From the NCBI GenBank assembly GCA_041914905.1, contig JAYSCL010000001.1, forward strand, positions 43,917-107,916: a stretch of 64,000 nt of DNA. Reading direction: 5' to 3'. The notes under the pieces were generated by a model. That model searched no databases. It worked only from the letters and a program-made list of their open reading frames with translations, and was not told the origin of the DNA. Position 1 is the stretch's first letter, and every line of letters starts with the position of its first letter. Positions 18,021 to 40,673 of this stretch are shown here, one piece after another. A program made the position numbers and the translations under genes. This DNA is from Enterobacterales bacterium (lineage in GTDB: Bacteria; Pseudomonadota; Gammaproteobacteria; Enterobacterales; Permianibacteraceae).

Positions 18021-19135
18021 GACACAACCCTCACCAACCACTGTGCCAAACGCTGCGGTGTTAACGCCGCGATTTCCATACCGCTAGCGGCTAGCCGTTC
18101 GGCCATTTCACGATCATAAAATGGTTGTGATTGCGCATCGAGCGATGCCAGACCAAGCAGTTTGACGCGCGCTTCGGCTAACGCTTTGGTTGCTCGCAGT
18201 AATTCGGCGGGCGATCCACCTTCACAGAAGTCACTGACTAAAACCAAAACAGTTCGATGCGGATTTTCCACCAGCTGGCTGCAATAGCGCATGGCTTGTG
18301 CAATATCGGTTCCGCCACCCAATTGCACTTGCATTAAAATCTCAACCGGATCGTCGGCATAACCAGATAGATCAACAATATTGGTATCGAACACTACGAT
18401 CTTGACGCGGAAAGCCGGCAAAGCCGCAAGAATTCCTGCCATGATCGCGCTGTGTATGACGGAGTCCGCCATGCTGCCACTCTGATCGACACATAAAATA
18501 ATGTCCCAGGGTAGTCGCCGACTATTGCGTTCAAAAAAGCGCAACTGTTCGATCACCAGTTGTTGGCGTTCACGATCATAATTTTTCAAGTTACGACGCA
18601 CCGTACCGCTTGCATCGAAGTTCTGAAGCACCGCCATCGGCGAATGGCGAAACCGATTCAAACGCCCCGACAGTGTTTGCCGTATTTCGGCTTCGAGCTG
18701 ACGCCGGATTTCTGCAACAACTTGCCGAATGATACGTCGTATGGTTGGCAAAACATTGTCATTCAAGTGACCACGCAAAGTCAGCAATGAGCGCAACAAT
18801 TGTTGATTCGGTTCCAGTTTTTCCAGCGTTTGGGGATCGGTTAGCAGCTCGGTCAAACCATAACGATCGAGTGCATGTTTTTCGATGACTTCAATCGTTT
18901 CTTGCGGAAACAACTCGCGCACTTCGGCTAGCCAAGTCACCAATGTCAGCTGCGTTGCATCAAGCGAACCAGGACCCAGTTCTTTGCGTAATCCGCGTGC
19001 GCTGTATTCACGCCCGTAAAGGTATTCTAGTGCCGAGTCCATTCGCCCATGTGCACCGGCTAAAGTGTTTTGATTGAGCAGTTTCTGATTGGCATATTTG
19101 CCAAGAATAAGTCGCCATCTTTCAAGCTGGCTCAT
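18017..19135 (-). CDS. VWA-domain protein with a MIDAS motif.
   Basis: The MIDAS motif is LCVDQSGSMADSV, a DxSxS pattern. Its start overlaps the upstream gene's stop (ATGA). Confidence 0.7.
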   Translation of the reverse strand: MSQLERWRLILGKYANQKLLNQNTLAGAHGRMDSALEYLYGREYSARGLRKELGPGSLDATQLTLVTWLAEVRELFPQETIEVIEKHALDRYGLTELLTDPQTLEKLEPNQQLLRSLLTLRGHLNDNVLPTIRRIIRQVVAEIRRQLEAEIRQTLSGRLNRFRHSPMAVLQNFDASGTVRRNLKNYDRERQQLVIEQLRFFERNSRRLPWDIILCVDQSGSMADSVIHSAIMAGILAALPAFRVKIVVFDTNIVDLSGYADDPVEILMQVQLGGGTDIAQAMRYCSQLVENPHRTVLVLVSDFCEGGSPAELLRATKALAEARVKLLGLASLDAQSQPFYDREMAERLAASGMEIAALTPQRLAQWLVRVVS

Positions 19136-26637: not shown

Positions 26638-27660
26638 ATGTTCGGCTTTCGCTATATCAAAACCTTACCCACCAGCTACGTCATTCAGTATCGCAACGGC
26701 AAAATCGAGCGAGAGGGCCAAGGCCTCTCCTTTATATATTTTGCCCCAACCAGTTCTTTGGTTTCAGTTCCTGCGGCAAGCCGAGATGAGCCTTTTATCT
26801 TTCAGGAAACAACACGAGACTTCCAAGAAATCACTGTTCAGGGTCGCGTTACCTGGCGCGTCAAAGACGCGCCTCGCTTGGCAAGCATGTTGAACTTTAC
26901 CTTGGATACCAGTGGCAACAAGTATGTATCGGACGATCCAGAAAAATTGCCCACTCGCGTTCTTCATCAAGTTCAGGTCGCCATGCGGGCTGTTTTAAGC
27001 TCACTTGAGTTGCAATCAGCTTTAAGTTCTTCGCAAACCTTGGTCACGACGGTTCAAAACGGCCTTTCGAGCAACCGCGAACTTGAAGCGCTGGGCTTGG
27101 AGATCTTGGGTCTGTCGGTGCTCGCGATCAAACCGAAACCTGAGACAGGTAAAGCACTTGAAGCGCGCGTGCGTGAACAAATTTTGCGTGAGGCGGACGA
27201 AGCCGCGTATGCGCGCCGTAATGCCGCCGTAGAACAAGAACGCACCATCAAAGAAAACGAACTGAATACCGAAGTCGCGATCGAAAAGAAGAAGCGCCAA
27301 GTGCAGGAGGAGAAAGTCGAAGCCGAGCGTGTTCTGAAACAGAAGAAAAATGCCATTGCCGAAGAGGATCTTGCCGCACAAGTTGATCGCGAAGAAAAAC
27401 GTAAAGCGTTGGTAGAAAAAGCTGCCGAAAACGCTCGTGCTGAAGCCGATGCAAAAGCGTATCAACTCGCCGCCATGCTCAACACCGTGAAGTCTGTTGA
27501 CGTTAAAACATTGGAAGCCTTAGCACTAAACGGTATGGACGCATCACGATTGGTTGCACTCGGTTTTCGTGAGTTGGCTGAAGGCGCCGGCAAGATTGGT
27601 CAGCTCAATGTCAGCCCGGATTTATTACGTGAGTTGATTGCCAGCGAGAAACGCGCATGA
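26638..27660 (+). CDS. Cytoplasmic SPFH/band-7 (flotillin/slipin-like) protein lacking an N-terminal TM segment.
   Basis: An SPFH core is followed by an E/A/K-rich coiled-coil (EAERVLKQKKNAIAEEDLAAQVDREEKRKALVEKAAENARAEADAKA). Confidence 0.6.
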   Translation: MFGFRYIKTLPTSYVIQYRNGKIEREGQGLSFIYFAPTSSLVSVPAASRDEPFIFQETTRDFQEITVQGRVTWRVKDAPRLASMLNFTLDTSGNKYVSDDPEKLPTRVLHQVQVAMRAVLSSLELQSALSSSQTLVTTVQNGLSSNRELEALGLEILGLSVLAIKPKPETGKALEARVREQILREADEAAYARRNAAVEQERTIKENELNTEVAIEKKKRQVQEEKVEAERVLKQKKNAIAEEDLAAQVDREEKRKALVEKAAENARAEADAKAYQLAAMLNTVKSVDVKTLEALALNGMDASRLVALGFRELAEGAGKIGQLNVSPDLLRELIASEKRA

Positions 27661-28574
27661 GTGGTGAACGTAAAGTCGTTTTAGTCACTCGGCGCACACG
27701 TCTCGAAGAGTTGGTTGTGCGCCATAACTCTGTCGGACAAGCCAAATTTTATCTTGAGCATTTGGGTGCCGATTTTGGCGACTATGTCATCGAGCACGAC
27801 AATTATCGTCGTGCTCTCGATCGGTGCTTGTCGCAGCTTGACCCTCTCGTTCGTTATCAACAGCTGGACCGTAGCTTTTTGCCCAATTTCGTTTTTGCCC
27901 CCGATGATATTGTGATGACACTTGGCCAAGATGGTTTGGTTGCCAACACACTGAAGTATGTGGATCAACAATCGGTTGTCGCGATTAACCCAGATCCGCA
28001 ACGCTGGGATGGCGTGTTGTTGCCATTTCAAGTGGATCAAATTGGTTTTACGGTTGCCAACGTATTGGCTGACAAATATCAGTGCAAAAGAATCACGATG
28101 GCGGAAGTGGCGCTAAACGACGGCCAGCGCTTAAAAGGTGTGAACGATATTTTTATTGGTCAACGCTCACACGTCTCGGCACGCTACGCCATTGAGTTTG
28201 CGCAGCAACGTGAACATCAATCTTCCAGTGGTGTTATCGTCGCCACCGGCCTTGGCTCCACTGGCTGGTTACGCAGCGTGATCACAACGGCGCAAAGAAT
28301 CTCGGCCCCACAGCAAAATGCTGACTATTCTCCTCACGCTTGGGATGAAAAGCGTCTGCACTTTGTGGTGCGCGAAGCATTTCCTTCGCGCAATACAGGG
28401 GTCAATTTAATTGCCGGGGAAATTGCTCACAATCGCGTTCTCACCATCACGTCGGAAATGCCTGAAGGTGGTGTTATTTTCGCCGATGGAATGGAAATGG
28501 ATGCAATTCAGTTCGGCGCCGGCTTCACTGCCACGATTCAACCTGCCATGCAACAAGCGCGGCTGGTTGTTTAG
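27657..28574 (+). CDS. ATP-NAD kinase / diacylglycerol-kinase catalytic-fold protein (putative), translationally coupled to the SPFH gene.
   Basis: The start overlaps the SPFH stop (ATGA). The block VMTLGQDGLVANT resembles the GGDG loop of the NAD-kinase/DAGK fold. Confidence 0.4.
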   Translation: MSGERKVVLVTRRTRLEELVVRHNSVGQAKFYLEHLGADFGDYVIEHDNYRRALDRCLSQLDPLVRYQQLDRSFLPNFVFAPDDIVMTLGQDGLVANTLKYVDQQSVVAINPDPQRWDGVLLPFQVDQIGFTVANVLADKYQCKRITMAEVALNDGQRLKGVNDIFIGQRSHVSARYAIEFAQQREHQSSSGVIVATGLGSTGWLRSVITTAQRISAPQQNADYSPHAWDEKRLHFVVREAFPSRNTGVNLIAGEIAHNRVLTITSEMPEGGVIFADGMEMDAIQFGAGFTATIQPAMQQARLVV

Positions 28575-29995
28575 CGTCGCCATTCGGTACAAATACGAAC
28601 GATCTCGGTCAACGTTTCCTTCTGAATCCTCGGAAACGTGTTCTGTACCGCGATCAATGACTCATCAATTGAAGCAATCAATGTTTTCGGAATGGGCAGG
28701 TAGCAACTCCGCTTCGCATAAATCCATCGTGCTAACAAATTATTTTGCAAGTTGATGTCTTGTACGGCGCCCGAGTTAACGACCAACTCCAGCAAGAATG
28801 CCAAACGTTCCCACAACGGAATGAGATCACATAGCGCAACAACCCTGCCATGATGTTGACGATTTATGTTCGTCTGAATGAGCTGCTTTGTTGTCTCCAA
28901 TGATAGTGCCACATGATTTTTTAAGCGGTGTTTCATGCCATAGCGAAAAATTCGCTGACTTGGATCTTCCAACATGAGTAGCACGAGGTTTTCGTGATCA
29001 ATATCCGGCAATTGCCTCAGCGCCCAATAGGCCGTTGTTCGCGTTTCGACACACGGGCTAGTCGCAGCCGCCTTCAATCTGTCTAGATAGATAGTGTTTT
29101 TTTCTAGACCCATTAACCCGATCAACTTGGGTGCGGGCATTCGCTCATCGTTGCATTTTGTCAGTTCGTCATCAATCAACTGTGAAATCGCAAAACCGCC
29201 CTTTTTTGCATACCAATGAGCAACGTCCCGCACTCCTGCGGAATCATCCAATAACGCGCTTTTGAGAACCGCATTTCTGTCAAAAACAGAATTGTCGCCC
29301 GCAAAAAAAACGTGCAACGCTTTTTGCCTTACCGAAGGCTGCGGATCTTGAAGTAACAACTCAACAAACCCGATATGCGCGGATAAATCCGTTTTACAGA
29401 CGTCCAGAACCATCATGCGTAACCGGCAGTCAGAATGTTGGACAACAACAGGTAACGCGGAGGCCAAAGCGTCTTCCGGCCATTTCAACATAAACGAAAA
29501 AGCATAACGTGCAGTTGAAGCCTTTAAGCACGCAAATTGCGTCAATAAAAGTGGCTGCACCGAGGGTAGCGCCAACAACGCCTCAACCATCTGCAGAGTT
29601 TTAACATGATTATCTCGTGACTGTTCGAACAGCCTGAAAAGTTCATCAAGACTATCAATTATCACCTGTGCATTTTCTTCCCGAATAAACTGGTGAACCA
29701 GTTGTCGCGACGAAATACGGACAGCATAGACCCAGTCATTTAGTCGCAAAACCAACAGTTGAAATGTGGCTGCATTACTAATAGAACTAAGGCGCTCCAG
29801 TGCCGCTTCACGGATAAATCCGTCGTTGTTTTGAGAGAACTCGATTAGGGCTTCTTCGTTTGCATTTGCAGGGATTTGTCTTCGAGCTTGCTGAAGTCTC
29901 TCCATCAGAGCTGGATGGATGTATCCTTCGTCTTCGATATAGCTTTTATTGCCTTCCATTCGCAGACGAAGTTTTTCTATGAAATCAATTATCAT
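28571..29995 (-). CDS. HEAT-repeat protein (PBS-lyase HEAT-like repeats), downstream of rtcB.
   Basis: Repeated xVRxxAxxAL units are present (AVRISSRQ, SVRQKALHVF, GVRDVAHWY, VETRTTAYWALRQL). Confidence 0.5.
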   Translation of the reverse strand: MIIDFIEKLRLRMEGNKSYIEDEGYIHPALMERLQQARRQIPANANEEALIEFSQNNDGFIREAALERLSSISNAATFQLLVLRLNDWVYAVRISSRQLVHQFIREENAQVIIDSLDELFRLFEQSRDNHVKTLQMVEALLALPSVQPLLLTQFACLKASTARYAFSFMLKWPEDALASALPVVVQHSDCRLRMMVLDVCKTDLSAHIGFVELLLQDPQPSVRQKALHVFFAGDNSVFDRNAVLKSALLDDSAGVRDVAHWYAKKGGFAISQLIDDELTKCNDERMPAPKLIGLMGLEKNTIYLDRLKAAATSPCVETRTTAYWALRQLPDIDHENLVLLMLEDPSQRIFRYGMKHRLKNHVALSLETTKQLIQTNINRQHHGRVVALCDLIPLWERLAFLLELVVNSGAVQDINLQNNLLARWIYAKRSCYLPIPKTLIASIDESLIAVQNTFPRIQKETLTEIVRICTEWRR

Positions 29996-30113
29996 TTTTT
30001 CGCCTCAGCCTCATCAATCATGAACAGCGTTAGTGAAACTTGTTAAAGCTTTGCGACGCTTGCTTGATGCGAACGCTCTATGCAGTAAAGCGCGCCCAAG
30101 GCGCGCTTACTCT

Positions 30114-31325
30114 TTACCCCTTGACGCAAACGACTTGACGCAAGGTATGCACAACTTCAACCAATTCTCGTTGTGCCATAATTACAGCATCAATGTCTTT
30201 ATAAGCCATTGGGATCTCGTCAATCACATCGGCGTCTTTACGGCATTCAACATGTGCGGTCGCTTCAATTTGATCGCTTACCGTAAATTTGTTTTTCGCC
30301 GCTGTGCGACTCATTACACGACCAGCACCGTGACTGCAGGAGTGAAAGGATTCAGGGTTACCAAGTCCTCGCACAATATAGCTTTTTGCGCCCATTGAAC
30401 CCGGAATGATGCCGAGTTCACCTTTCTTCGCCGACACTGCACCTTTACGGGTTACCAAAACCTCTGCGCCGAAGTGCGTTTCTTTTTGCACATAGTTGTG
30501 ATGACAATTGACCGCGGCTACGTCTGCGGTGAATGGTTTGCGAATAACGCGCTGCGCCGCCGCCACCACATTTTGCATCATCACCATACGGTTTCGGCGT
30601 GCATAGTCCTGTGCCCAACCAACGGCTTCAATGTAGTCGTCAAAGTGCTGGCTACCTTCTTCGAAGTACGCGAGATCACGATGAGGCAAATTAGCAATGT
30701 GTTGCCGCATATCGGCTTGTGCCAACGCAATAAATAATTCGCCAATGGCGTTACCGACTCCCCGTGAACCGGAATGCAACATGAACCAGACAACTCCTGC
30801 TTCATCAATACAGACTTCGATAAAATGGTTACCGGTACCTAATGTCCCAAGATGTTTATAGTTGTTGGTGTTTTTAAGGCGCGGGTATTTCTCTGTAATG
30901 CGATTAAAGCCCGGCAACAATTCTGCCCACATGGTGTCGACCGTCGTCGGCGCATTCTCCCAGGCACCACGATCACGTCTACCCGATGAACGACCATGCG
31001 GTACCGCTTGCTCAATGGCTGTTCGCAATTCGCGTAAATTGTCAGGTAGATCTTCAGCGCGCAGTGTCGTGCGCGCCGCCATCATGCCGCAACCAATATC
31101 AACACCCACGGCTGCCGGAATAATCGCTCCTTGTGTTGGAATTACACTTCCAATGGTTGAGCCCTTTCCGACATGCACGTCCGGCATCACAGCCATATGC
31201 TTATAAATAAAAGGCATCGTTGCGGTGTGGCCTAACTGACGTTTTGCGTCGTCATCGACCGGCACGCCTTGCGTCCACATTTTGATCGGCTTACCGTTTT
31301 CTACTTCCAGCAATTCATATTCCAT
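30114..31325 (-). CDS. rtcB: RNA-splicing ligase RtcB (3'-phosphate/5'-OH RNA ligase).
   Basis: The protein aligns end to end with E. coli RtcB (MEYELLEVENGKPIKMWTQGVPVDDDAKRQLGHTATMPFIYKHMAVMPDVHVGKGSTIGSVIPTQGAIIPAAVGVDIGCGM). Confidence 0.9.
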   Translation of the reverse strand: MEYELLEVENGKPIKMWTQGVPVDDDAKRQLGHTATMPFIYKHMAVMPDVHVGKGSTIGSVIPTQGAIIPAAVGVDIGCGMMAARTTLRAEDLPDNLRELRTAIEQAVPHGRSSGRRDRGAWENAPTTVDTMWAELLPGFNRITEKYPRLKNTNNYKHLGTLGTGNHFIEVCIDEAGVVWFMLHSGSRGVGNAIGELFIALAQADMRQHIANLPHRDLAYFEEGSQHFDDYIEAVGWAQDYARRNRMVMMQNVVAAAQRVIRKPFTADVAAVNCHHNYVQKETHFGAEVLVTRKGAVSAKKGELGIIPGSMGAKSYIVRGLGNPESFHSCSHGAGRVMSRTAAKNKFTVSDQIEATAHVECRKDADVIDEIPMAYKDIDAVIMAQRELVEVVHTLRQVVCVKG

Positions 31326-31400
31326 AGCTGTAAATCCTATCGTCGTTTATTGCCCATCAATGTTTTTTGCAGTTGATGGGCTTGCTACTGCACTTATCTG

Positions 31401-32534
31401 TTATGAACCAATCTTAACCAAGCCATTCATCAGCGAATCCAAACCACCATAAACGTTCAGATGACCAATGCGCTCCGATAACTTTTCCAACGTTTCGAGC
31501 TCTTTCAAGCGCAACAACACCGCATTACCTTCCATCATGCGCGCCGTGTTGTGTAACGAACGCGTTGCAGCCGTTTCCTCGCGACGTTTGATCAAGTTGG
31601 CTTCGGCTGCTTTTTGTGCCTGCACAACTTGATTCAAAATGTCTTTCATTTCACCGGGCAAAATAATGTCCTTCACACCCACCTGATCCAGATCGATACC
31701 GTATTGCGCCAGCGATTCAGTACACTCTTTTGCAATCACACGGCTGATCGAATGTTTGTCCGCCAGCAACTCGTCCAATGTGCGCGTACCAACCGCTTCA
31801 CGCAATGCCAATTGCAAACGGCGATAAACGTGATCATCAACTTGTTTCAGTTTTTGCGCGACCGTTTGTGGGTCACGAATTCTGAAGGCCGCATTCAAAT
31901 TGATTCGCAGCGATACACGATCTTTGGTCAAAATTTCCTGGCCACTGATTTCCACGTTCTGCAAACGCAAGTCATAGACCTGTAACGTCAATTGACGATT
32001 AACATGCCAGAACGCGTGCCGACCGGCCGACAATGCACTTTTTAAACGACCGTTTTCATACAACAAACCCACCGATTGTTCTGGTATTAGCGCTTGCAGC
32101 AAGCGATCACCTTTTTTACTAAGGTTTACACCTTGGCGCAGGATCTCTGATAACAACGGCTCTTGCACACGATACGTATCGCTAACATCGAACGTATCGA
32201 TTCGAATTGTGAACGGTGTTTTCCACCACACTACACGCTCACCTGGCTCGACTAAACGGATCAAACGATTGTCGCTATACAGCGCGCCCACTTCGTTTGC
32301 TGTCAGCTGTTTCACCATCACGTGATCGGCAAACGCGGCTTGCTTCAATAAAACGTCGAGTTGCGCATGCTGCACTTCACCTGAGCCCAGCGCGACGACA
32401 TCTGCATTTAAGCGATTGCCCCAATCGATTTTACGATGCCGACCTGGCGCCAGCACGTGTTGAAACTGTTTATCATGGAACAACAAACCACGTTCGTTAT
32501 CGCCAATTTTCCACTGTTTAATTTGCATCATCAT
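31401..32534 (-). CDS. SPFH/band-7 (slipin-like) protein with no TM anchor, immediately upstream of rtcB. The ORF extends to 32600; the start is placed at the MMMQIKQ methionine cluster.
   Basis: An SPFH core is followed by a C-terminal coiled-coil (VVQAQKAAEANLIKRREETAA). It shares orientation with rtcB, with a 75-nt gap between them. Confidence 0.6.
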   Translation of the reverse strand: MMMQIKQWKIGDNERGLLFHDKQFQHVLAPGRHRKIDWGNRLNADVVALGSGEVQHAQLDVLLKQAAFADHVMVKQLTANEVGALYSDNRLIRLVEPGERVVWWKTPFTIRIDTFDVSDTYRVQEPLLSEILRQGVNLSKKGDRLLQALIPEQSVGLLYENGRLKSALSAGRHAFWHVNRQLTLQVYDLRLQNVEISGQEILTKDRVSLRINLNAAFRIRDPQTVAQKLKQVDDHVYRRLQLALREAVGTRTLDELLADKHSISRVIAKECTESLAQYGIDLDQVGVKDIILPGEMKDILNQVVQAQKAAEANLIKRREETAATRSLHNTARMMEGNAVLLRLKELETLEKLSERIGHLNVYGGLDSLMNGLVKIGS

Positions 32535-32807
32535 TTTTTCCTTTTTTAAGAGCCGGCGAGGGGTCGACAACGTGTCATCGGCCAATTCAGTTGTGGTCAT
32601 GGTGCTATCCGTCCTGTGGATCGCTTCCTTCTTTTCACCATCACGACTTCTGCGATGGCCGTGGCTACGTTGTCGACGCAGCTCGCCGGTTTGGTGCTAC
32701 TGACGAAAACCCGAAAAGCAGTTTTCGCATTCACACCGTTGTTGGGCTTGCGCCCAATTGACTTAAGTGGGGTTTTCACCCCAAAGGCGTGAAAGGCCCT
32801 TTTCCAA

Positions 32808-32879
32808 GGAGCTTGTGCAGGATTCGAACCTACGACACATCGCATTGCTGCGATTGCTCTACCGCTGAGCTATCAAGCG
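32808..32879 (-). ncRNA. tRNA-like element (tRNA mimic or Y-RNA-like module, or a tRNA pseudogene) in the leader of the SPFH-rtcB operon.
   Basis: On the minus strand it reads CGCTTGATAGCTCAGCGGTAGAGCAATCGCAGCAATGCGATGTGTCGTAGGTTCGAATCCTGCACAAGCTCC. The D-arm GCTC/AGCGGTA/GAGC is perfect. The T-arm GTAGG/TTCGAAT/CCTGC is perfect. The anticodon stem ATCGC/GCGAT encloses a loop of only 6 nt. The acceptor stem has 5 central base pairs with mismatches at both ends. No CCA is encoded. Confidence 0.5.
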
Positions 32880-32984
32880 TTTGAGTTTGTGATCTCCAGT
32901 CGGTACATCCTTGCCCAATGGGCGGATGCCAGTCCGGTGTAACAACCAGAACCGCTGATCCGGAGCACTTGCTCACGATTACTA

Positions 32985-33003
32985 TTCCAAGTTGCGTGCC
33001 AAG
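32985..33003 (-). promoter_or_regulatory. Candidate sigma54 (-24/-12) promoter reading leftwards into the tRNA-like element, the SPFH gene and rtcB.
   Basis: The minus strand reads TTGGCACGCAACTTGGAA. TGGCACG is a perfect -24 element. The spacing is correct. The -12 element is TTGG rather than TTGC. It sits ~140 bp upstream of divergent rtcR, whose product is a sigma54 activator. Confidence 0.45.
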
Positions 33004-33146
33004 TCCGGGCTAGAAGATTCTATACGCATCTATCTTATTGTTTTTTAATGTTTTAATTTTTATTGGTTGGCAAAAAGCTGTTGGTTGATGTGCTTGATGG
33101 ATTACGTCAAACTTAACTATATAGATAGTTAATTATCGACAATGAT

Positions 33147-34739
33147 ATGAAGAAGAATGTTGTGCTCGGTATTGTGGGCCAGGCACTTGATAACCGTGGC
33201 AAGGGGTACAAACGTTGGGATGCTTGGCGCCCCTCCGTCAGTGTGTGTATGCAGCCCGATCTGCACGTCGATCGATTTGAACTGATTCATCAACCCCGAG
33301 ATTTCAAACTGGCCAACGAAGTCGCGACGGATATCGCCAGCGTTTCAGTGGCGACCACGGTTGGACTGCACCCCATCGAGTTCAACGATCCCTGGGATTT
33401 CGAAGAGGTGTACAGCAAGCTGCTGGATTTCTGTTTGGCCTATCGCTTTGACAATGAAAACGAACAGTATTTTTTGCACATCACAACCGGTACTCACGTC
33501 GCTCAAATTTGCTGGTTCTTGCTCTGCGAAGCCAACTACGTGCCCGCGCAGTTGCTGCAAAGTTCTCCGCAAAAATCAACCGAACACGGAAAAGGTTCCA
33601 TTCAGATCATTGATCTGGATCTGTCACGCTACGATGCGATCAGTTCGCGGTTTAAGCGGCATAAGCTCGAAGGCGAAGCGTTTCTCAAATCCGGCATTGC
33701 GACACGCAATGAGCGCTTTAATGCGATGATTCACGAAATTGAACGCGTTGTGATTCGTTCGAAAGCGCCATTACTGATCACTGGCCCCACCGGCGCCGGA
33801 AAATCGCAACTGGCAAAACGTGTTTACGAGCTGAAGCAACGACGTGCACAAGTGCAGGGTGAATTCATCGCGATAAATTGCGCAACACTGCGTGGTGACA
33901 ACGCGATGTCAACTTTGTTCGGCCATACCCGCGGTGCTTTCACTGGTGCACAACAAGCGCGAAAAGGACTTTTAGCCAAAGCACATAAAGGTCTGCTGTT
34001 TCTCGACGAGATCGGCGAGCTGGGGCTTGATGAACAGGCCATGTTGTTGCACGCACTCGAAGAAAAATGTTTTTACCCGGTCGGTGCCGATGTCGCCGTC
34101 AACAGCGATTTCCAGCTGATCGCCGGCACCAACCGTGATTTGCGCATTGCAGTGAAGAACGGTCAATTCCGTGACGACTTGCTCAGTCGAATCAATTTAT
34201 GGAGTTATGAATTACCCGGACTTAAAGATCGACGCGAAGACATCGAACCCAATATCGATTATGAGCTTCAGCAATTAGAAGCCGAGCAAAATCACAAAAT
34301 CAGTTTCAATAAACTGGCGCGCCAACAATACCTGACGTTTGCGAAGAGCACTGAAGCGAGTTGGAGTGGTAATTTTCGCGATCTGAACGGTTCGATCCGT
34401 CGTATGGTGACCTTGGCCGATGGTGGTCGCATCACCGAAGAAGTCGTCGCAACGGAAGTAGCGCGCCTGCGATTATTTTGGGCGGATACAAAACCAGAGC
34501 AAGCTTTGCCACGTTTGGAAAATTACGTTGCCACGGACGTGCTAGCCGAGATGGACCAATTTGATCAATGGCAACTGTCCAGGGTTATTGCTGTTTGCCA
34601 AGGCACCGCTTCACTGTCGGAGGCAGGTAGGCAATTGTTTGATCGCAGTCGCTTGCAAAAGTCATCGGTCAATGACAGCCATCGACTCCGACAATATTTA
34701 GCAAAATATGGATTGAGTGCCGATCAACTGCTGCGGTAA
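33147..34739 (+). CDS. rtcR: Sigma54-dependent transcriptional activator RtcR (CARF sensor domain, AAA+ domain, HTH).
   Basis: The N-terminus MKKNVVLGIVGQALDNRGKGYKRWDAWRPSVSVCMQ...ITTGTHVAQICWFLL matches E. coli RtcR. It has the AAA+ motif GPTGAGKSQLAKRVYEL. It is 530 aa. Confidence 0.85.
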   Translation: MKKNVVLGIVGQALDNRGKGYKRWDAWRPSVSVCMQPDLHVDRFELIHQPRDFKLANEVATDIASVSVATTVGLHPIEFNDPWDFEEVYSKLLDFCLAYRFDNENEQYFLHITTGTHVAQICWFLLCEANYVPAQLLQSSPQKSTEHGKGSIQIIDLDLSRYDAISSRFKRHKLEGEAFLKSGIATRNERFNAMIHEIERVVIRSKAPLLITGPTGAGKSQLAKRVYELKQRRAQVQGEFIAINCATLRGDNAMSTLFGHTRGAFTGAQQARKGLLAKAHKGLLFLDEIGELGLDEQAMLLHALEEKCFYPVGADVAVNSDFQLIAGTNRDLRIAVKNGQFRDDLLSRINLWSYELPGLKDRREDIEPNIDYELQQLEAEQNHKISFNKLARQQYLTFAKSTEASWSGNFRDLNGSIRRMVTLADGGRITEEVVATEVARLRLFWADTKPEQALPRLENYVATDVLAEMDQFDQWQLSRVIAVCQGTASLSEAGRQLFDRSRLQKSSVNDSHRLRQYLAKYGLSADQLLR

Positions 34740-34844
34740 GCCATTTGCTTCCAGTCCATGCGAAAAGACGGCTAATTACCATCTCGCCTTTGTTTTTTAC
34801 ACAGTCGTCACGGTTTTTTTTCAGTCGGTTCGTGAGCAGTATTT

Positions 34845-35303
34845 TTAGGGTTCATAGATCACTAGTGTGTGGTTCTCACTGGCTAGTTCTTCATCGATGA
34901 TTTTGGCGATCACGTCCCAATTCCCGCCTGCGAGTCCCGCACCAATTAACGGATAAGCAATGCGTTTGCCGAAGAACGCGTTTTTTATGCATTTCATCGC
35001 GCTGCGAATGGCCTCGTAATCAGCTTTGTTGCGATTACCTCGCCAATCAAACTGAGTGTATGCGTTGACGACGTAAAAGGCATGATCACCCCTGCGAACC
35101 AAAACGGAACTAATTGAGCCCAGCTTTTCAACTGAACCTTTTGGTGTTTGAAGATCTGCTTCATAGGCTTCAGGGAAGTGCGCACGGATTTGCTTTGCAA
35201 TCCCTGCCCCCATAACACACATGCAATTGCAGCCATGGACTATAACATCGAAATGTCCTTCCTGTGCAAGCAGGAGAAGATCGCCTTTAACGGTTATACC
35301 CAT
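34845..35303 (-). CDS. Macro-domain protein (ADP-ribose / ADP-ribose-1''-phosphate binding or hydrolysing).
   Basis: Macro-domain motifs are present (VVHGCNCMCVMGAGIAKQI and AYPLIGAGLAGGNW). It is 152 aa. Confidence 0.7.
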   Translation of the reverse strand: MGITVKGDLLLLAQEGHFDVIVHGCNCMCVMGAGIAKQIRAHFPEAYEADLQTPKGSVEKLGSISSVLVRRGDHAFYVVNAYTQFDWRGNRNKADYEAIRSAMKCIKNAFFGKRIAYPLIGAGLAGGNWDVIAKIIDEELASENHTLVIYEP

Positions 35304-35362
35304 TTAATTTTTTCCCGCAAGGTTTCGATAGGAGTTTGTGGTAATAGGGTGAGTTAATTGCA

Positions 35363-36271
35363 TCAGATACTTGCATATTTGTTCTCGTAAAGCGCTTGCG
35401 CTTTCCGTCGAATCATTTCGCGATCAACCAGCTTATCAAGCCAGCGTTGGGGGATAGCCGCAACACCGTAAAACGCGCCAGCAAGTTGGCCGGTAATTGC
35501 AGCCGTAGTATCGGTGTCTTCACCAAGGCTAATCGCTTTTAGAATGGCGTCCTCAAAATTGCTTGTAGTGGCAACACACCAAAGCGAGGCTTCCAGTGAA
35601 TGAAGAACATAGCCCGAACTTTCAATGGCTTCCATCGATTTGGTACGCCAATCGCCGCGCACAATGCAGCGCAACTTGTCTGTGCTTGGCGTGAAGCTGG
35701 CATTGCTGAGCACCTGTTCCTTCGTTTCACCGCGTAGTGCACGAATCAGATGTTCAACATAAACCTGACAAGCTTCCAAACATTCGGTCGCACCGTGTGT
35801 AGTTTTGGAACTCAACGTAGCAAATTCGCGCGCCGCATTTAAGTCTTCGCAAAAATACATCGCGATCGGGGCCAGCCGCATCAAACTGCCGTTGCCTGCA
35901 GTGTTCGGATTGTTGCTGCCGGCATACGCCACACCGTTAGCGATGTACTGGCGTAAAGCCGTTGCCGTTGTCATGCCAATATCAAAACAGCGCCCGTTGC
36001 TGCTTAGGTAACCGTAATTCATCCAATTGCAGTAGCGGTTCATCTGATCAACCGGATCAAAGCTTTTGCAATACAATAAGCTTTCAGCAAGGCAAAGCGC
36101 CATTGATGCATCGTCGGTCCATTCACCGGGGCCGAGATCGAAGGGTCCACCACCAACCATTTCTGTGGGCGTTTCAAATGCGAAACGCTCACGAAATTCA
36201 ACTTGTGCGCCTAAAGCATCACCACAAGCAAGGCCAAGTAAACAGCCTTCGAAGCGTTCAATCATGTCCAC
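35363..36271 (-). CDS. ADP-ribosylglycohydrolase (ARH/DraG family).
   Basis: The N-terminus ERFEGCLLGLACGDALGAQVEF and the block GEWTDDASMAL are ARH-family signatures. Confidence 0.75.
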   Translation of the reverse strand: MDMIERFEGCLLGLACGDALGAQVEFRERFAFETPTEMVGGGPFDLGPGEWTDDASMALCLAESLLYCKSFDPVDQMNRYCNWMNYGYLSSNGRCFDIGMTTATALRQYIANGVAYAGSNNPNTAGNGSLMRLAPIAMYFCEDLNAAREFATLSSKTTHGATECLEACQVYVEHLIRALRGETKEQVLSNASFTPSTDKLRCIVRGDWRTKSMEAIESSGYVLHSLEASLWCVATTSNFEDAILKAISLGEDTDTTAAITGQLAGAFYGVAAIPQRWLDKLVDREMIRRKAQALYENKYASI

Positions 36272-36276
36272 TTGAT

Positions 36277-37050
36277 TTATGCTCCACTGGTAATCGTGCG
36301 CGGAAAAAAGTGTTGGCGCGTGCCATCTTTTAATCGAAACAGCTGGGCCGGACGATTAGCACCACCGCGCACGGCACCCACGATTTCTTCGAGAATCGCT
36401 GCATCATTAATACGACGACGAAAGGCGCTTTTATCAATGGGGCGACCGAGAATGATCTCGAAGGTTTTTTGCAAATCGCCCAACGTAAATTGCTCTGGTA
36501 ACAGGTGCACCGGCAGGGCGCTGTACTCGGTTTTGGCGCGCAATCGTTGCAAAGCATTTTCAAGCAGCAGGTCATGATCAAATGCGAGTGTTGCTGACAC
36601 GGCGTTGTCCGTGATCGGAAACCAGGCGACCGCATCGCTGTTACCACCTACCGACAGATCAATGGCATCACTATTGATCAGCGCAAAATACACCACCGTC
36701 ACCGACCAACCGCGTGGATCGCGTTGCTTATTGCCAACCGTCATCAACTGCTCGACATAGGGGCTGGCGACACCGGTTTTTGTTTTGAGGATACGCAGTG
36801 CGGCGGCGTCTAAATCGGCATCTTCTTGTAATCGAATAAACCCGCCAGGCAACGCCCACTTTCCCAATGCCGGATGATCGTTGCGTTTGACCAGCAGCAC
36901 CTGTAGTTGAGTGTCCTTGACCGTAAAGATCACCGTATCGACGGTCGTTAATGGCGCATCAAAGACTTTGGGGTCATAGCTGCGCAAAAATTCGCTTTCA
37001 CTTAAGGTCGTGGACATGCTGATAGGCTTGTTGAAATAAGATAGTTGCAT
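36277..37050 (-). CDS. nrtR: Nudix-related transcriptional regulator (NrtR type): a Nudix ADP-ribose-binding domain plus a C-terminal winged helix. The start is uncertain; the ORF extends to 37125.
   Basis: The Nudix box reads GKWALPGGFIRLQEDADLDAAALRILKTKTG. It has a C-terminal wHTH-like tail. It is divergent from the pncA-pncB-nadE operon and sits upstream of the ARH and macro genes. Confidence 0.6.
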   Translation of the reverse strand: MQLSYFNKPISMSTTLSESEFLRSYDPKVFDAPLTTVDTVIFTVKDTQLQVLLVKRNDHPALGKWALPGGFIRLQEDADLDAAALRILKTKTGVASPYVEQLMTVGNKQRDPRGWSVTVVYFALINSDAIDLSVGGNSDAVAWFPITDNAVSATLAFDHDLLLENALQRLRAKTEYSALPVHLLPEQFTLGDLQKTFEIILGRPIDKSAFRRRINDAAILEEIVGAVRGGANRPAQLFRLKDGTRQHFFPRTITSGA

Positions 37051-37118
37051 ATTGCCACTAACAGGATTAGAGTACAAGCATAGTTTTACAGAGCAACTAA
37101 GTATTAAAGGGGAGCACC

Positions 37119-37778
37119 ATGGCAAACATCATGTTGGGACTAAAAGCCCATACCGCTTGCTTCGATGTCGACGCGCAGTACACCTTTACACCGGTTTGCC
37201 CACAAGAGTTACCCGTACCTGGCGGTGATGAGATTGCAGCGGAACTTAATGCTCAAGCCCAGTTCGCGGCCGTTCGGGTCGGATCAAAAGACGCCCACTC
37301 ACCTCACGCCGTTTGGGTTGCCGATGAAAAGCATCCGCAATTTTCACCGGTAGCTGGTGACAACGTTGACATCCACTGGGTGCAACACGCGGTGCCCGGT
37401 AGCAAGGGTTTTGAGTTACTGGCGACCTTGCCACACCCAGCCGATTACGACTTTTTTGTTTGGAAGGGTGTTGAGCTCGATATGCATCCTTACGGTGCGT
37501 GTTACCACGATCTGCGTGATCGCTTGAGCACCGGCGTCATTGAGTACCTGAGAGCACATCAGATCCAAACGGTTATCGTTGGTGGCTTGGCAACCGATTA
37601 CTGTGTCAAAACTACGGTCATGCAATTACGCCGTGCCGGATTCGAGGTGGTGGTCAATTTGGGTGCCTGCCGCGGCATTAACAAAGACACCATCGACGCC
37701 GCTATCAAGGAAATGAAGAACGCCGATGTGCGCTTTGTTGCAACCGCGGCAGAGTTACAAAATCTGATCGCGGCGTAA
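37119..37778 (+). CDS. pncA: Nicotinamidase (isochorismatase family).
   Basis: The isochorismatase-family layout is present, with a catalytic Cys in VIVGGLATDYCVKTT. It is first in the NAD-salvage operon. Confidence 0.75.
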   Translation: MANIMLGLKAHTACFDVDAQYTFTPVCPQELPVPGGDEIAAELNAQAQFAAVRVGSKDAHSPHAVWVADEKHPQFSPVAGDNVDIHWVQHAVPGSKGFELLATLPHPADYDFFVWKGVELDMHPYGACYHDLRDRLSTGVIEYLRAHQIQTVIVGGLATDYCVKTTVMQLRRAGFEVVVNLGACRGINKDTIDAAIKEMKNADVRFVATAAELQNLIAA

Positions 37779-37794
37779 TTTGGGGTAACAGAAA

Positions 37795-38961
37795 ATGATT
37801 ATCGAATCGCTGCTTGATACCGACTTATACAAATTCACCATGATGCAAACGGTGTTGCATCAATTTCCATCGGCTCAGGTGGAGTACCGCTTTAAATGCC
37901 GCAATGCCGGTATCGATCTTAAAACGCTGGTTCCTGTGATTGAGCAAGAGCTTGATCACTTGTGTCAGCTGCGTTTTCAGCCGGAAGAGCTCGATTATTT
38001 AACGACATTGCGCTTTCTGAAATCTGATTTCATCGACTTTTTGCGTTTGTTCCAACTGAACCGTGACTACGTGCAGATCACGACCGATCCCGAATTCGAC
38101 ATCGTCATTCGTGGCCCATGGCTTCACACCATATTGTTTGAGATCCCGCTGCTGGCGATTGTTAACGAGAGCTACTTCCGTCATACACAGCCCAACGCGA
38201 ATTATGACGAAGGACGTCAGCGTCTTAAGCGAAAGATCGATTTGGTCAAAAACTTGAAGCCATATGACCGCTTCCAGTTTTCGGATTTTGGTACTCGCCG
38301 CCGCTTCAATCGGCGGTGGCACTACGAGGTGGTTGATCGCCTAATCGCTGAACTACCTCATCAGTTAACTGGCACCAGCAATGTGCATTTGGCGCGAACA
38401 AGAAAAATCAAACCGATCGGCACGATGGCACACGAGTTTTTGCAGGCCTGCCAGGCCTTGGGCGTGCGACTGGCCGATTCGCAAAAGTTTGCACTTGAAA
38501 CCTGGGTCAAAGAATACCGTGGCGATTTGGGTATTGCCCTGACCGATGTATGCGGTATTGATGCGTTTTTACGTGACTTCGATCTTTACTTCTGCAAATT
38601 GTTTGACGGTGTGCGTCACGATTCTGGCGATCCGTTTATCTGGGGCGAAAAGGTGTTGGCGCATTATCAAAGCATGCGTATTGATGCTCGCAGCAAAACC
38701 TTTGTGTTCAGCGACGGTTTGACGTTTCCACTCGCGCTTGAACTCTACAACCGATTTAAGGACCGCACCAACACCGCGTTTGGCATTGGCACCAACTTGA
38801 CCAATGACATGGGTTACGAAGCGCTCAATATCGTAATCAAAATGACCGAATGTAATGGCCAGCCGGTCGCAAAGCTAAGCGACTCACCCGGAAAAACGAT
38901 GTGTCGCGATGAAACTTATCTAGCGTACTTACGCAAAGTATTCCAAGTTGGCATCGAATAA
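37795..38961 (+). CDS. pncB: Nicotinate phosphoribosyltransferase.
   Basis: The N-terminus [21 protein letters not shown] and the ~390-aa length match PncB. Confidence 0.85.
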
Positions 38962-38975
38962 TAGGGAAGAAGAAC

Positions 38976-40673
38976 ATGAAAATTTTAATGGTACAATGCA
39001 ATTTCACCGTTGGTGATTTCTCGGGTAATAAACAGAAGATCATGGACATCATTTGGCGCCATGGTCACGACCACGATTTGATCGTGTTTTCGGAGTTGTG
39101 TTTATCGGGCTACTACCCGATGGATCTGATTCATCAACCGGGTTTTTTAGCCGCACAACACGATGTGATCGGTGAGCTAAGGATCGCCACACAATCGTTA
39201 AAAGCCGCGATCGTGATTGGCTTTATCGATCAGAACCATTGGACCGGCAAAGCGCATCACAATGGCTTGATGGTGTTAGCCAAGGGCGTCACCCAACTTG
39301 TCTATCACAAGCGATTGTTGCCCACTTACAACATCTTTGATGAAGCACGCCATTTTGAGCCAGGCAATCTGCCCGGCATGTTAATGCTAAATGGCGTGCG
39401 CATCGGTTTTGCGATCTGTGAAGACTTGTGGAATGACGATGAAGATGGCGACTACGCGATGATGCCGATTAAATTGTTGGCGCGTGACAATCCCGACTTT
39501 ATTGTCAGCATTAACGCATCGCCGTCGAATTTGCATAAACACAGCGAGCGTCTGGTCCGTTTCCAAAAGCTCAGCGCGAAGTATCAGATCCCGTTGGTGT
39601 ATGTGAATCAAGTGGGTGGCAACGATGAGATTGTGTTTGATGGCAATAGCTTTGTAACCGATGAGAAAGGTCAGCTGCGCGTTCAACTGAAAGCATTTGC
39701 TGAAGATGAGGCCTCGATTGAGTTCAATACTGAACAGGGATTTCGGACACTGACCGAGGCCAAGTTCAACGCACCAACGGATGCTGAGTTTTACTACCAG
39801 CAAATTGTTATGGGCTTACGTGACTACGTGGAAAAGTGTGGTTTCCGTTCCGTTGTTGTCGGCTCTAGTGGTGGTATCGATAGCGCGCTGACATTAGCCC
39901 TCGCTCGCGATGCTTTAGGTGCCGAGCATGTCGCCGCGATCACGATGCCTTCACGCTACTCGTCACAAGGCAGCGTTGGTGATTCCGAAATTCTGTGTCG
40001 CAATCTTGGCATTAAATTGTTTAATGCGCCGATTGAAGCGCAGTTTAAACAAGCCACCAATGACTTCACCGCAGCATTTGGTCATGCGCCATCACGATTG
40101 ACGCAAGAGAATATGCAGGCGCGTATTCGTGGTCGTATCTTGATGGAGTATTCCAATCATCACGGCAACCTGGTGTTGTCGACCGGCAATAAAAGCGAAA
40201 TGTCGGTTGGTTACGCCACCTTGTATGGTGATATGAACGGTGGACTGAATTTGATTGGTGACCTATACAAAATGGAAGTGTATGCGTTGGCGCGTTATTT
40301 CAATGAAAGACACGGACGCGAATTAATTCCGCAATCGATTATTGATAAGGCGCCTTCTGCCGAATTGTTCGAAGGTCAAACCGATCAGGACTCATTGCCG
40401 CCTTATCCGGTGCTCGATGCGATTTTGCGTTTGTATGTCGAACGTGATTTGTTGATCGCTCAAGAGATTGAAGACAACAGCGCGTTGATCGCGCGTTATC
40501 CTGATGTCGATATTGATCGTGTATTACGCATGGTCGATATCGCCGAATTTAAACGTCGGCAAGCACCACCGATTATTCGTGTGCACAAAAAATCGTTCGG
40601 TATCGGCCGTCGAATTCCGATAGCCAAACAATGGACAAGCCCTGCGGATGCTGTGGTGATTCAACATGGTTAA
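38976..40673 (+). CDS. nadE: Glutamine-dependent NAD+ synthetase (a nitrilase domain fused to an NAD-synthetase domain).
   Basis: It has an N-terminal CN-hydrolase domain. The C-terminal PP-loop reads VVVGSSGGIDSALTLAL. It is 565 aa. Confidence 0.85.
   Translation: MKILMVQCNFTVGDFSGNKQKIMDIIWRHGHDHDLIVFSELCLSGYYPMDLIHQPGFLAAQHDVIGELRIATQSLKAAIVIGFIDQNHWTGKAHHNGLMVLAKGVTQLVYHKRLLPTYNIFDEARHFEPGNLPGMLMLNGVRIGFAICEDLWNDDEDGDYAMMPIKLLARDNPDFIVSINASPSNLHKHSERLVRFQKLSAKYQIPLVYVNQVGGNDEIVFDGNSFVTDEKGQLRVQLKAFAEDEASIEFNTEQGFRTLTEAKFNAPTDAEFYYQQIVMGLRDYVEKCGFRSVVVGSSGGIDSALTLALARDALGAEHVAAITMPSRYSSQGSVGDSEILCRNLGIKLFNAPIEAQFKQATNDFTAAFGHAPSRLTQENMQARIRGRILMEYSNHHGNLVLSTGNKSEMSVGYATLYGDMNGGLNLIGDLYKMEVYALARYFNERHGRELIPQSIIDKAPSAELFEGQTDQDSLPPYPVLDAILRLYVERDLLIAQEIEDNSALIARYPDVDIDRVLRMVDIAEFKRRQAPPIIRVHKKSFGIGRRIPIAKQWTSPADAVVIQHG

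Follow-up and report, generated by a model that had tools for sequence, protein, structure and literature searches.

What does a tRNA-shaped RNA do at the head of an RNA-repair operon, directly before a gene for an SPFH (Band-7) protein? The question is raised by a locus at positions 30114-34739 of a 64,000-nucleotide stretch of an Enterobacterales genome of the family Permianibacteraceae (contig JAYSCL010000001.1, positions 43,917 to 107,916), the whole of which we refer to as the window. Read along the minus strand from 33001 to 30114, the locus comprises a sigma54-type promoter, a tRNA-like element, an SPFH gene and rtcB. We conclude that it is very probably an RtcR/sigma54-controlled RNA-repair operon of the Band-7/b7a-tRNA/RtcB type, an assignment that draws on the domain composition of its proteins, the conserved sigma54 promoter, the recurrence of the same gene order in Permianibacter aggregans and about 15 other genera and the description of such a class in the literature. 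Taken as a whole, the data are best explained by an RtcR-induced repair operon in which the leader RNA and an oligomer of the SPFH protein would together form an accessory ribonucleoprotein, an explanation to which we give just under an even chance. The features of the locus are as follows.

33147-34739, plus strand: rtcR, transcribed divergently from the operon (Pfam RtcR, E=1.1e-79; Sigma54_activat, E=1.4e-48)
33113-33132, no strand assigned: perfect palindrome (8+8), TTAACTAT-ctat-ATAGTTAA, lying some 110-130 bp 5′ of the -24 element
32984-33001, minus strand: sigma54-type promoter, TGGCACG-N4-TTGGAAT (TGGCACGcaacTTGGAAT), with GG, not GC, as its -12 element
32894-32965, minus strand: three-way-junction (3WJ) RNA motif (model match 32960-32897, extended by eye)
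32809-32879, minus strand: tRNA-like element of the b7a-tRNA type, 71 nucleotides (Rfam tRNA, 36.2 bits; gathering score 29)
32535-32808, minus strand: structured 3′ leader (RNAalifold, four relatives)
31401-32534, minus strand: SPFH/Band-7 ("slipin") gene, 377 residues (Pfam Band_7, E=1.4e-29)
30114-31325, minus strand: rtcB, full length (Pfam RtcB, E=5.1e-128)
28571-29995, minus strand: gene for a HEAT-repeat protein, 3′ of rtcB (Pfam HEAT_2, 31.5 bits)

The protein-coding frame of the operon is clear. RtcB, an RNA 3′-phosphate / 2′,3′-cyclic phosphate to 5′-OH ligase, shares 53-82% identity with the RtcB proteins of related loci, and its gene follows the SPFH gene on the same strand after a 75-nucleotide gap. 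RtcR combines an N-terminal RtcR/CARF-type domain with an AAA+ domain, the composition of a sigma54-dependent activator according to Pfam and NCBIfam, and scores 790.9 bits against the NCBIfam RNA_repair_RtcR equivalog (cut-off 650). A preliminary description of this DNA had named both proteins, placed rtcR divergent from a sigma54-like promoter and reported that rtcA was missing, and each of these statements was borne out. A tblastn search of the whole 64 kb with two RtcA proteins of related loci found no rtcA (best E 0.18 over 28 residues), and Pfam detected no TROVE/Ro60 domain among the nine open reading frames (ORFs) at 26638-37125. That description had also presented the unit as non-canonical, with no rtcA. 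The lack of rtcA is common: among 31 related loci that carry RtcR, RtcB and the SPFH protein, RtcA is present within 6 kb in 18 and absent in 13. The HEAT-repeat protein that it had noted after rtcB is encoded there, but we rejected the gene as a member of the operon: none of the three closest relatives has it behind rtcB, and one of them (L083) lacks any homologue. Sigma70-like sites lie upstream of the gene. Membership in a known defence system was likewise rejected, as PADLOC returned no match for the SPFH protein, RtcB or the HEAT-repeat protein.

The promoter sequence TGGCACGcaacTTGGAAT is unchanged in the window, in the close relatives L081 and L083 and in the Enterovibrio locus L061, the locus of Permianibacter aggregans being included in this set; its counterpart in the third close relative, L082, is TGGCACGTAACGTGAAAT. 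This conservation in orthologous loci lends good support to the control by sigma54 and RtcR that had been predicted for the unit. Transcription is expected to start near 32975. In loci that share the gene order of the window, the promoter lies 29-42 nucleotides upstream of the 3WJ motif, which places the motif at the extreme 5′ end of the transcript. A relaxed pattern, TGGCAC-N5-TTGG, has four matches in the window against 0.62 expected; the other three are at 28897-28911 (minus), 18034-18048 (minus) and 63449-63463 (plus), one of them inside the HEAT gene. Between rtcR and the promoter, the block around the palindrome at 33113-33132 is conserved in L081 and L083. The palindrome could be a binding site for RtcR (an upstream activating sequence) or an operator of rtcR.

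The combination of RtcB with a Band-7 protein and an RNA termed "b7a-tRNA" was described by Burroughs and Aravind in 2016, as reported by Wang et al. (bioRxiv 10.1101/312249), and the window is a member of this computationally predicted kind as that preprint presents it. In addition, an SPFH gene has been noted in the rtc locus of Pseudomonas aeruginosa (PMC13086221). The unit is thus not the unrecognised oddity that it had first appeared to be. What the comparison with its relatives adds concerns the RNA, the protein and the link between them.

The preliminary description had seen a 72-nucleotide tRNA-like element at the start of the operon. Such an element is present, with 71 nucleotides, but the RNA exceeds a tRNA mimic: the predicted leader is about 440 nucleotides long, combines the 3WJ domain and the tRNA mimic with a structured 3′ part, and runs on into the SPFH gene and rtcB. 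The minimum free energy (MFE) fold of the element is a cloverleaf, with D and T arms that have canonical loops. The acceptor stem is reduced to 5 bp and is bounded by mismatches at 1:72 and 7:66, no CCA is encoded, and where a tRNA would have its anticodon arm there is a 6-bp stem capped by a GCAA tetraloop, not by a 7-nucleotide loop. The Rfam alignment has 6 nucleotides where the model expects the 7-nucleotide anticodon loop. ARAGORN calls no tRNA gene across the whole window, this element included, and the combination of this negative result, the tetraloop and the mismatched acceptor led us to reject an ordinary tRNA for the window, in keeping with the earlier view of the element as a mimic. 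An Rfam search of 32500-33250 matched the tRNA model and none of the Y RNA families at E<=10; given also that no Ro gene is present, identity with Y RNA or YrlA was rejected.

Comparison of the four closest sequences (the window, L081, L082 and L083) is informative in this respect. Their anticodon loop varies from a 7-nucleotide loop with GUU in L081 and L083 to the GCAA tetraloop of the window and a 3-nucleotide loop in L082, while the tRNA body, mismatches included, is conserved; a decoding tRNA would not be expected to combine a conserved body with a changing anticodon loop. Across more distant loci, the element closest to the SPFH gene (the proximal element) ranges from 71 bits (L009) to 36 bits against the Rfam tRNA model in 13 cases, with the window copy the lowest. 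ARAGORN assigns many different anticodons to the proximal elements (Met CAT most commonly, followed by Ile, Lys, Asn, Leu and Thr); the remaining elements receive "???" calls with abnormal loops or no call at all.

Upstream of the tRNA-like element we identified a second RNA domain, the three-way junction. Its layout consists of a closing stem (P0), the junction AGC, a hairpin (P1) whose loop starts with UUC, and then P2, a bulged helix of the form GG-CRC.../...GYG-[2-nt bulge]-CC, in which the bulge is UA in the window. For the feature at 32894-32965, P2 can be written as GGCAY.../...RUG, with CC following the bulge. A MAFFT alignment of 22 hand-collected copies served as the seed. In this alignment 92.8% of the cells are paired, and compensatory changes occur at 11 of the 17 pairs. 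Its covariation score, 0.543, compares with 0.222 for shuffled alignments and is equalled by none of 500 shuffles; slid controls reach 29-41% pairing. In the refined structure, based on 61 sequences, 15 of 18 pairs are compensatory and P2 is 98.3% paired. The bulged P2 helix is established by a change from G-C to U-A at one pair (33:72) together with a change from G-C to A-U at the next (34:71). The same two pairs, along with the P0 pair 4:73, led us to reject the alternative CGGU/ACCG pairing suggested by the MFE fold of the single sequence.

The window copy of the motif scores 55 bits (E=3e-15) with the covariance model and 48.1 bits with a second model, R2. Rfam 15 has no match to it at E<=10, and a search of 147 kb of related loci against Rfam found tRNA alone. 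Recognition of the 5′ leader in distant loci relied on a profile of four sequences; nhmmer searches with a single sequence of the 5′ or the 3′ leader returned close relatives only. The covariance model then matched a single 3WJ in each locus, always in the orientation of the coding strand and shortly 5′ of the proximal tRNA-like element. At the 3′ P2/P0 junction (32897-32903 in the window), family members carry the near-invariant sequence GUACCGA or GUACCAA. The former bears a faint likeness to GGUCCGA, with which vertebrate Y RNAs contact Ro60, and to the GNCGAA motif of bacteria (PMC4201824); the locus itself lacks a Ro gene.

The third part of the leader lies between the tRNA-like element and the SPFH start codon. 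In the four closest sequences, the region between rtcR and the SPFH gene can be aligned from promoter to start codon, and the RNAalifold consensus for the 3′ leader contains 57 pairs, 21 of which have compensatory changes. Its elements are listed here.

32784-32800, minus strand: hairpin
32769-32782, minus strand: degenerate T-arm-like hairpin
32742-32757, minus strand: GCAA-capped hairpin
32693-32737, minus strand: compound hairpin
32689-32668 with 32572-32553, minus strand: long-range helix, ending about 10 nucleotides before the ribosome-binding site (RBS) and about 20 nucleotides before the start codon

A comparable long-range pairing, GAGGCCCA/UGGGCCUC, occurs with compensatory variants in distant loci. 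Compared with shuffled sequences, the fold of the whole leader has a z-score of -6.96, and no terminator-like site is found on the minus strand between the RNA and the SPFH gene. A coding role for an 82-residue ORF at 32845-32597 was rejected, as the indels of the relatives are not multiples of three and the region contains covarying helices. Covariation in the 3WJ, covariation in the 3′ leader and the retention of the tRNA body despite the changing loop all point to the leader being a functional structured RNA.

We then asked which gene this RNA accompanies. Starting from the protein, we used an alignment of SPFH homologues to collect 80 genome loci of Gamma- and Betaproteobacteria, to which three close relatives were added, among them P. 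aggregans. In nearly all of the 80 loci, the SPFH gene is preceded by at least one tRNA or tRNA-like element in the same orientation; the proximal element is usually 150-630 nucleotides away from the start codon. An nhmmer search with the element of the window gave 73 matches, all on the SPFH strand and nearly all just upstream of the SPFH gene. The co-location of the tRNA-like element and the SPFH gene is not due to chance. The 3WJ was found by model R2 at E<=0.01 in 72 of 85 SPFH-retrieved sequences, and nowhere else in 1.0 Mb at the same threshold.

For the reverse test we looked for the RNA in metagenomes. A degenerate pattern over P1 and the start of P2 yielded 92 loci with a bimodal distribution of covariance-model scores: 56 reached at least 41 bits, and the rest did not exceed 26 bits. 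Where at least 900 nucleotides of downstream sequence were available, an SPFH homologue followed 430-1230 nucleotides downstream on the same strand in 37 of 39 high-scoring loci, as against 0 of 22 low-scoring matches for which the sequence was long enough. This reciprocal linkage makes the RNA and this SPFH subfamily a tightly linked pair, with RtcB and RtcR as frequent but optional companions. The two high-scoring loci that lack an SPFH homologue look decayed or rearranged: L128 (5069-5700) keeps the tRNA-like element and a remnant of a T arm before an unrelated gene, and L161 (8000-8700) has a tRNA array and rtcB followed by a tRNA-like element truncated after the D arm.

Clustering of the ORFs of 84 loci gave the SPFH protein in 84, RtcB in 48, RtcR in 36, RtcA in 20, an HNH endonuclease in 18 and an RlaP-like nucleotidyltransferase in 16. 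Among the 57 loci with complete 6-kb flanks, RtcB occurs in 36 and RtcR in 29, and 19 have neither; in RtcB-less loci no gene recurs downstream of the SPFH gene, all being singletons. The pairing of the SPFH protein with RtcB that had been singled out before is therefore frequent but optional, and the RNA is the more tightly linked partner. Since, in addition, a second Band_7 gene in the window (see below) has no such RNA, the leader appears to be a partner of this SPFH protein rather than of RtcR or RtcB. Loci with RtcR show two gene orders. In one, rtcR is divergent from RNA-SPFH-rtcB, as in the window, P. aggregans and the other genera mentioned above; in the other, it is divergent from rtcB(-rtcA)-RNA-SPFH. 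A phage origin was rejected, as 2.9 million viral contigs contained one relative of the SPFH protein.

Several relatives elaborate on the RNA part of this module. Two and sometimes three tandem tRNA-like elements precede the SPFH gene in the Pseudomonas loci L057, L064, L071, L079 and L080 and also in L010, L016, L026/L061 and L060. Both tandem elements of the Pseudomonas loci often have abnormal anticodon loops, and a 3WJ-resembling sequence is seen in L079 at about 5470-5545. In other relatives, the 3WJ-tRNA-like-SPFH module is directly preceded, on its own strand, by an array of 5-19 tRNA genes that look canonical, with Rfam scores of 40-70 bits (L001 1872-5614, L023 1217-5654, L072 3869-5463, L009 4055-5627, L029, L033, L049 and L161). 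A gene for an HNH endonuclease of about 190 residues often separates the array from the 3WJ, and rtcB is sometimes present as well. A nucleotidyltransferase of about 266 residues, marked by the motif GSRAWG...SDFD, is encoded together with rtcB and rtcA in 16 related loci (for example, L059 9531-10331 and L079 8692-9786) and is absent from the window. We take it to resemble an RlaP-type enzyme, a type that Burroughs and Aravind reportedly link to RNA ligases.

The SPFH protein itself departs from the membrane-bound members of its family. The ORF of 1134-1200 nucleotides reported earlier was confirmed (32600-31401), and its start was refined. Translation most likely begins at 32534, giving 377 residues and 1134 nucleotides, because an AAGGAA RBS (32543-32538) precedes the run of ATG codons, because database proteins have matching lengths (375 residues for the identical protein P0001 and 377 for the P. 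aggregans orthologue), and because the 5′ portion of the ORF can be aligned among relatives as structured RNA, with indels that break the reading frame; together with the covarying helices of the relatives, these indels led us to reject 32600-32535 as a coding N-terminal extension. The protein contains no hydrophobic or transmembrane segment (maximum Kyte-Doolittle mean over 19 residues, 0.72), which agrees with the cytoplasmic location proposed for it, and beta repeats take the place of a membrane anchor at its N-terminus.

An AlphaFold2 model with a predicted local distance difference test (pLDDT) score of 80.5 comprises three beta units, the SPFH domain and a C-terminal helix of about 60 residues. 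Two of the beta units are N-terminal repeats of about 70 residues, and the third falls inside the Pfam Band_7 match. The best structural matches of the model are stomatin, prohibitin and HflK/C, and the longest alignments are with the major vault protein (MVP). The repeat can be detected in sequence, and homologues of 534-683 residues contain four to six copies (P0029, P0030, P0041, P0049, P0061, P0091 and P0105), compared with two to three in the window protein; such a variable number is what would be expected of a wall-building module. In common with the rings of stomatin, HflK/C, flotillin and prohibitin, the protein has an SPFH domain followed by a coiled-coil helix, but it lacks their N-terminal membrane anchor. 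It is also loosely similar to MVP in its tandem beta repeats, SPFH domain and long helix, a vault-likeness that, as judged from the model, is a resemblance and not a demonstrated membership. To our knowledge, the C-terminal helix drives assembly in every SPFH protein with a solved oligomeric structure. By analogy, the window protein probably forms a soluble oligomer, a ring or cage, through this helix.

These properties suggest a mechanism for the locus. In Salmonella, tRNA halves and nicked tRNAs that end in 2′,3′-cyclic phosphate bind the CARF-type domain of RtcR, which leads to activation of the sigma54 promoter, and RtcB seals tRNA breaks that end in cyclic phosphate (PMC7790460). By analogy, damaged tRNA with a 2′,3′-cyclic phosphate end would act through RtcR to switch on the promoter at 33001-32984. 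We hypothesize that the leader, either whole or cut around the tRNA mimic in the manner of RNase P, would be the cognate RNA partner of the SPFH protein, and that the latter, lacking an anchor, would assemble via its C-terminal helix into a soluble ring or cage. The resulting ribonucleoprotein could act as a scaffold or cofactor for tRNA repair, in which the tRNA-shaped module might recruit or position RtcB or other tRNA-handling enzymes, much as a Y RNA tethers Ro60 to a partner enzyme. We put forward this cofactor mechanism tentatively, as possible rather than probable.

The leader may instead act only in cis. According to this explanation, the 3WJ, the mimic and the 3′ domain would sense a signal and gate the translation or stability of the SPFH-rtcB mRNA, through a tRNA-recognising protein or through RNase P or RNase E, and no RNA would act in trans. 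Such a role fits the linkage of the RNA to the gene downstream of it, as with riboswitches and leaders. It also fits the constant position of the RNA, which directly precedes the SPFH gene in the same orientation and is not separated from it by a terminator, and the conserved long-range helix that closes shortly before the RBS and carries compensatory changes. However, the helix in the window ends at 32553 and includes neither the RBS nor the start codon, about 440 nucleotides is very long for a leader, and the tandem tRNA-like copies, as well as the replacement of the mimic by near-canonical tRNAs of 68-71 bits, look like gene products. On balance, we consider a purely cis-acting leader unlikely.

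We hold a role as decoy or in feedback to be improbable as well. The tRNA-shaped module would then be a sponge for, or competitive inhibitor of, anticodon nucleases, or a substrate that on cleavage gives cyclic-phosphate fragments acting back on the CARF domain of RtcR; the SPFH protein would have its own, separate part in the stress response. The range of anticodons among the proximal elements, which includes Met CAT, Lys UUU and Asn GUU, fits this idea, tRNAs with these anticodons being targets of anticodon nucleases, as do the whole tRNA arrays that adjoin the module in relatives. RtcR is moreover known to respond to tRNA fragments, a decoy role has been proposed for YrlA (PMC7790460), and a sponge role has been proposed for the tRNAs of cyanobacterial arrays co-regulated with rtcB (PMC8421152). 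The window copy, however, has a GCAA tetraloop in place of an anticodon loop and therefore cannot mimic the substrate of an anticodon nuclease, and neither the conserved 3WJ nor its tight linkage to the SPFH gene is explained. The RNA also occurs without rtcR or rtcB in the 19 complete loci mentioned above. The same observation weakens the earlier proposal that the leader is a built-in ligand of the RtcR CARF domain, since the RNA tracks the SPFH gene and not rtcR, and so does the second gene order, in which the RNA lies downstream of rtcB or rtcA.

The element could also be a decoding tRNA, functional or spare, that only happens to be carried on the operon transcript, as in Escherichia coli, where tRNA genes precede tufB. 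Good proximal tRNAs, all called tRNA-Met CAT, do occur in relatives (L009, 71.4 bits; L001, 68.3 bits; L023, 68.2 bits), as do adjoining arrays of apparently canonical tRNAs in several genomes; yet for the window such a tRNA is very improbable given the rejection of the window element by ARAGORN, its bottom rank among the 13 scored elements, its departures at the anticodon loop, acceptor stem and 3′ end, the unconserved loop on a conserved body and the abnormal loop lengths in many loci.

The proposal of an accessory ribonucleoprotein must be weighed against several observations. The linkage of the RNA to the SPFH gene would be equally expected if the RNA regulated the SPFH gene only in cis, for which the position of a helix near the RBS is suitable, so that the two models fit the linkage data equally well. 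In five Pseudomonas loci the 3WJ was not detected by the covariance model, although a diverged version is possibly visible by eye, and the domain may thus be dispensable to the system. The proposed cage is extrapolated from other members of the SPFH family. In the account given by the preprint, b7a-tRNA was without experimental validation as of 2018 (bioRxiv 10.1101/312249). Finally, deletion of paFlo8, the SPFH gene of the P. aeruginosa PA14 rtc locus, had no phenotype in growth, virulence factors, motility, biofilm formation or oxidative stress, in assays that did not include RNA damage (PMC13086221).

A bolder interpretation is that the invariant core of these loci is not RtcB but a two-part ribonucleoprotein widespread in Gamma- and Betaproteobacteria. 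Its protein would be a soluble, vault-like SPFH cage protein, built from N-terminal beta repeats in variable number, an SPFH shoulder and a cap helix; its dedicated RNA would be the 3WJ domain, which matches no Rfam 15 family and did not turn up in the papers searched, fused to at least one tRNA mimic. Such a bacterial counterpart of the vault and Ro ribonucleoproteins would bind tRNA-shaped RNAs or present them, either for repair or for quality control, and would join RtcB/RtcR operons or long tRNA arrays depending on the genome. We regard this interpretation as doubtful; if true, it would define a new class of bacterial ribonucleoprotein with a logic akin to that of Ro/Y RNA and vaults. More generally, the locus bears on how bacterial RtcB finds and handles its substrates and on the purpose of the Ro60/Y RNA accessories, beside which the SPFH/b7a-tRNA version would stand as a second, independent solution in Rtc operons. 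The analysis supplies exact coordinates for the leader of about 440 nucleotides and a covariance model of the 3WJ domain. It also predicts a soluble oligomer and not an organiser of membrane rafts, which matters for the filing of PaFlo8-like proteins under membrane microdomains.

The surroundings of the unit contain two further groups of genes. A second, unrelated Band_7 protein of 340 residues is encoded at 26638-27660 on the plus strand and overlaps by 4 nucleotides the gene of a 305-residue protein (27657-28574, plus strand) with weak similarity to NAD kinases (E about 5e-6, far below the cut-off). This pair converges on the HEAT gene and has no 3WJ, no tRNA-like RNA and no PADLOC match. 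Beyond rtcR, the region 34845-40673 appears to be an NAD-salvage/ADP-ribose cluster. It encodes a macro-domain protein (DarG-macro-like, E=4e-17), an ADP-ribosylglycohydrolase and an NrtR-type Nudix regulator, and further ORFs are candidates for pncA, pncB and nadE, which they resemble in sequence.

Among known systems, the rsr-yrlBA-rtcBA operon of Salmonella Typhimurium, which encodes Rsr, YrlA, YrlB, RtcB and RtcA under the control of RtcR and sigma54, offers a close parallel. Both loci have a divergent rtcR, a sigma54 promoter, RtcB, a structured noncoding RNA with a tRNA-like module and a protein from a ring- or cage-forming family. They differ in that the window has no TROVE/Ro60 protein, no rtcA and no Y_RNA-type match in Rfam at E<=10. 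In YrlA, the tRNA-like domain is embedded in a Y RNA, whereas the window has a 3WJ domain of its own and, 3′ of it, a cloverleaf with all four arms. The analogy to Rsr(Ro60)/YrlA/RtcB drawn in the preliminary description, in which an SPFH protein replaces Ro and the tRNA mimic is kept, is the same as that drawn in the literature. The rtcR/rtcBA locus of E. coli shares RtcR with its CARF-type and AAA+ domains, the sigma54 promoter and RtcB with the window, but has RtcA and neither an accessory RNA nor an SPFH gene, the reverse of the situation in the window.

In P. aeruginosa PA14, the SPFH gene for PaFlo8 (PA14_60630) lies between rtcR and rtcB in a locus that also contains rtcA; the protein has been treated as a putative membrane-microdomain protein, with no mention of RNA (PMC13086221, 2026). 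The Pseudomonas loci L064, L071, L079 and L080 have rtcR divergent from tRNA-like(s)-SPFH-rtcB, as in the window, and differ in their two tandem tRNA-like elements, in the absence of a 3WJ according to the model and in the presence of rtcA in L064, L079 and L080 (L071 ends at rtcB). The cyanobacterial tRNA "L-arrays" (PMC8421152), with an upstream HNH gene and co-regulation with rtcB, resemble the arrays found in relatives of the window. The window differs from them in having neither a tRNA array nor an HNH gene, and the text of that report contains no reference to SPFH, stomatin or slipin. The eukaryotic vault particle, composed of MVP, vault RNA and TEP1, is a further system with which the window was compared.

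The nearest relative is the Band-7/b7a-tRNA/RtcB system itself. As that class is outlined in the preprint, it shares with the window an RtcB beside a Band-7/SPFH protein and a tRNA-like predicted noncoding RNA, the pair being likened to Ro60 and Y RNA. Nothing essential differs, except that the mimic of the window copy is unusually degenerate, with a tetraloop for an anticodon loop. Relative to this outline, the 3WJ domain, the reciprocal linkage of the RNA and the SPFH gene, and the soluble repeat-SPFH-helix architecture may be new.

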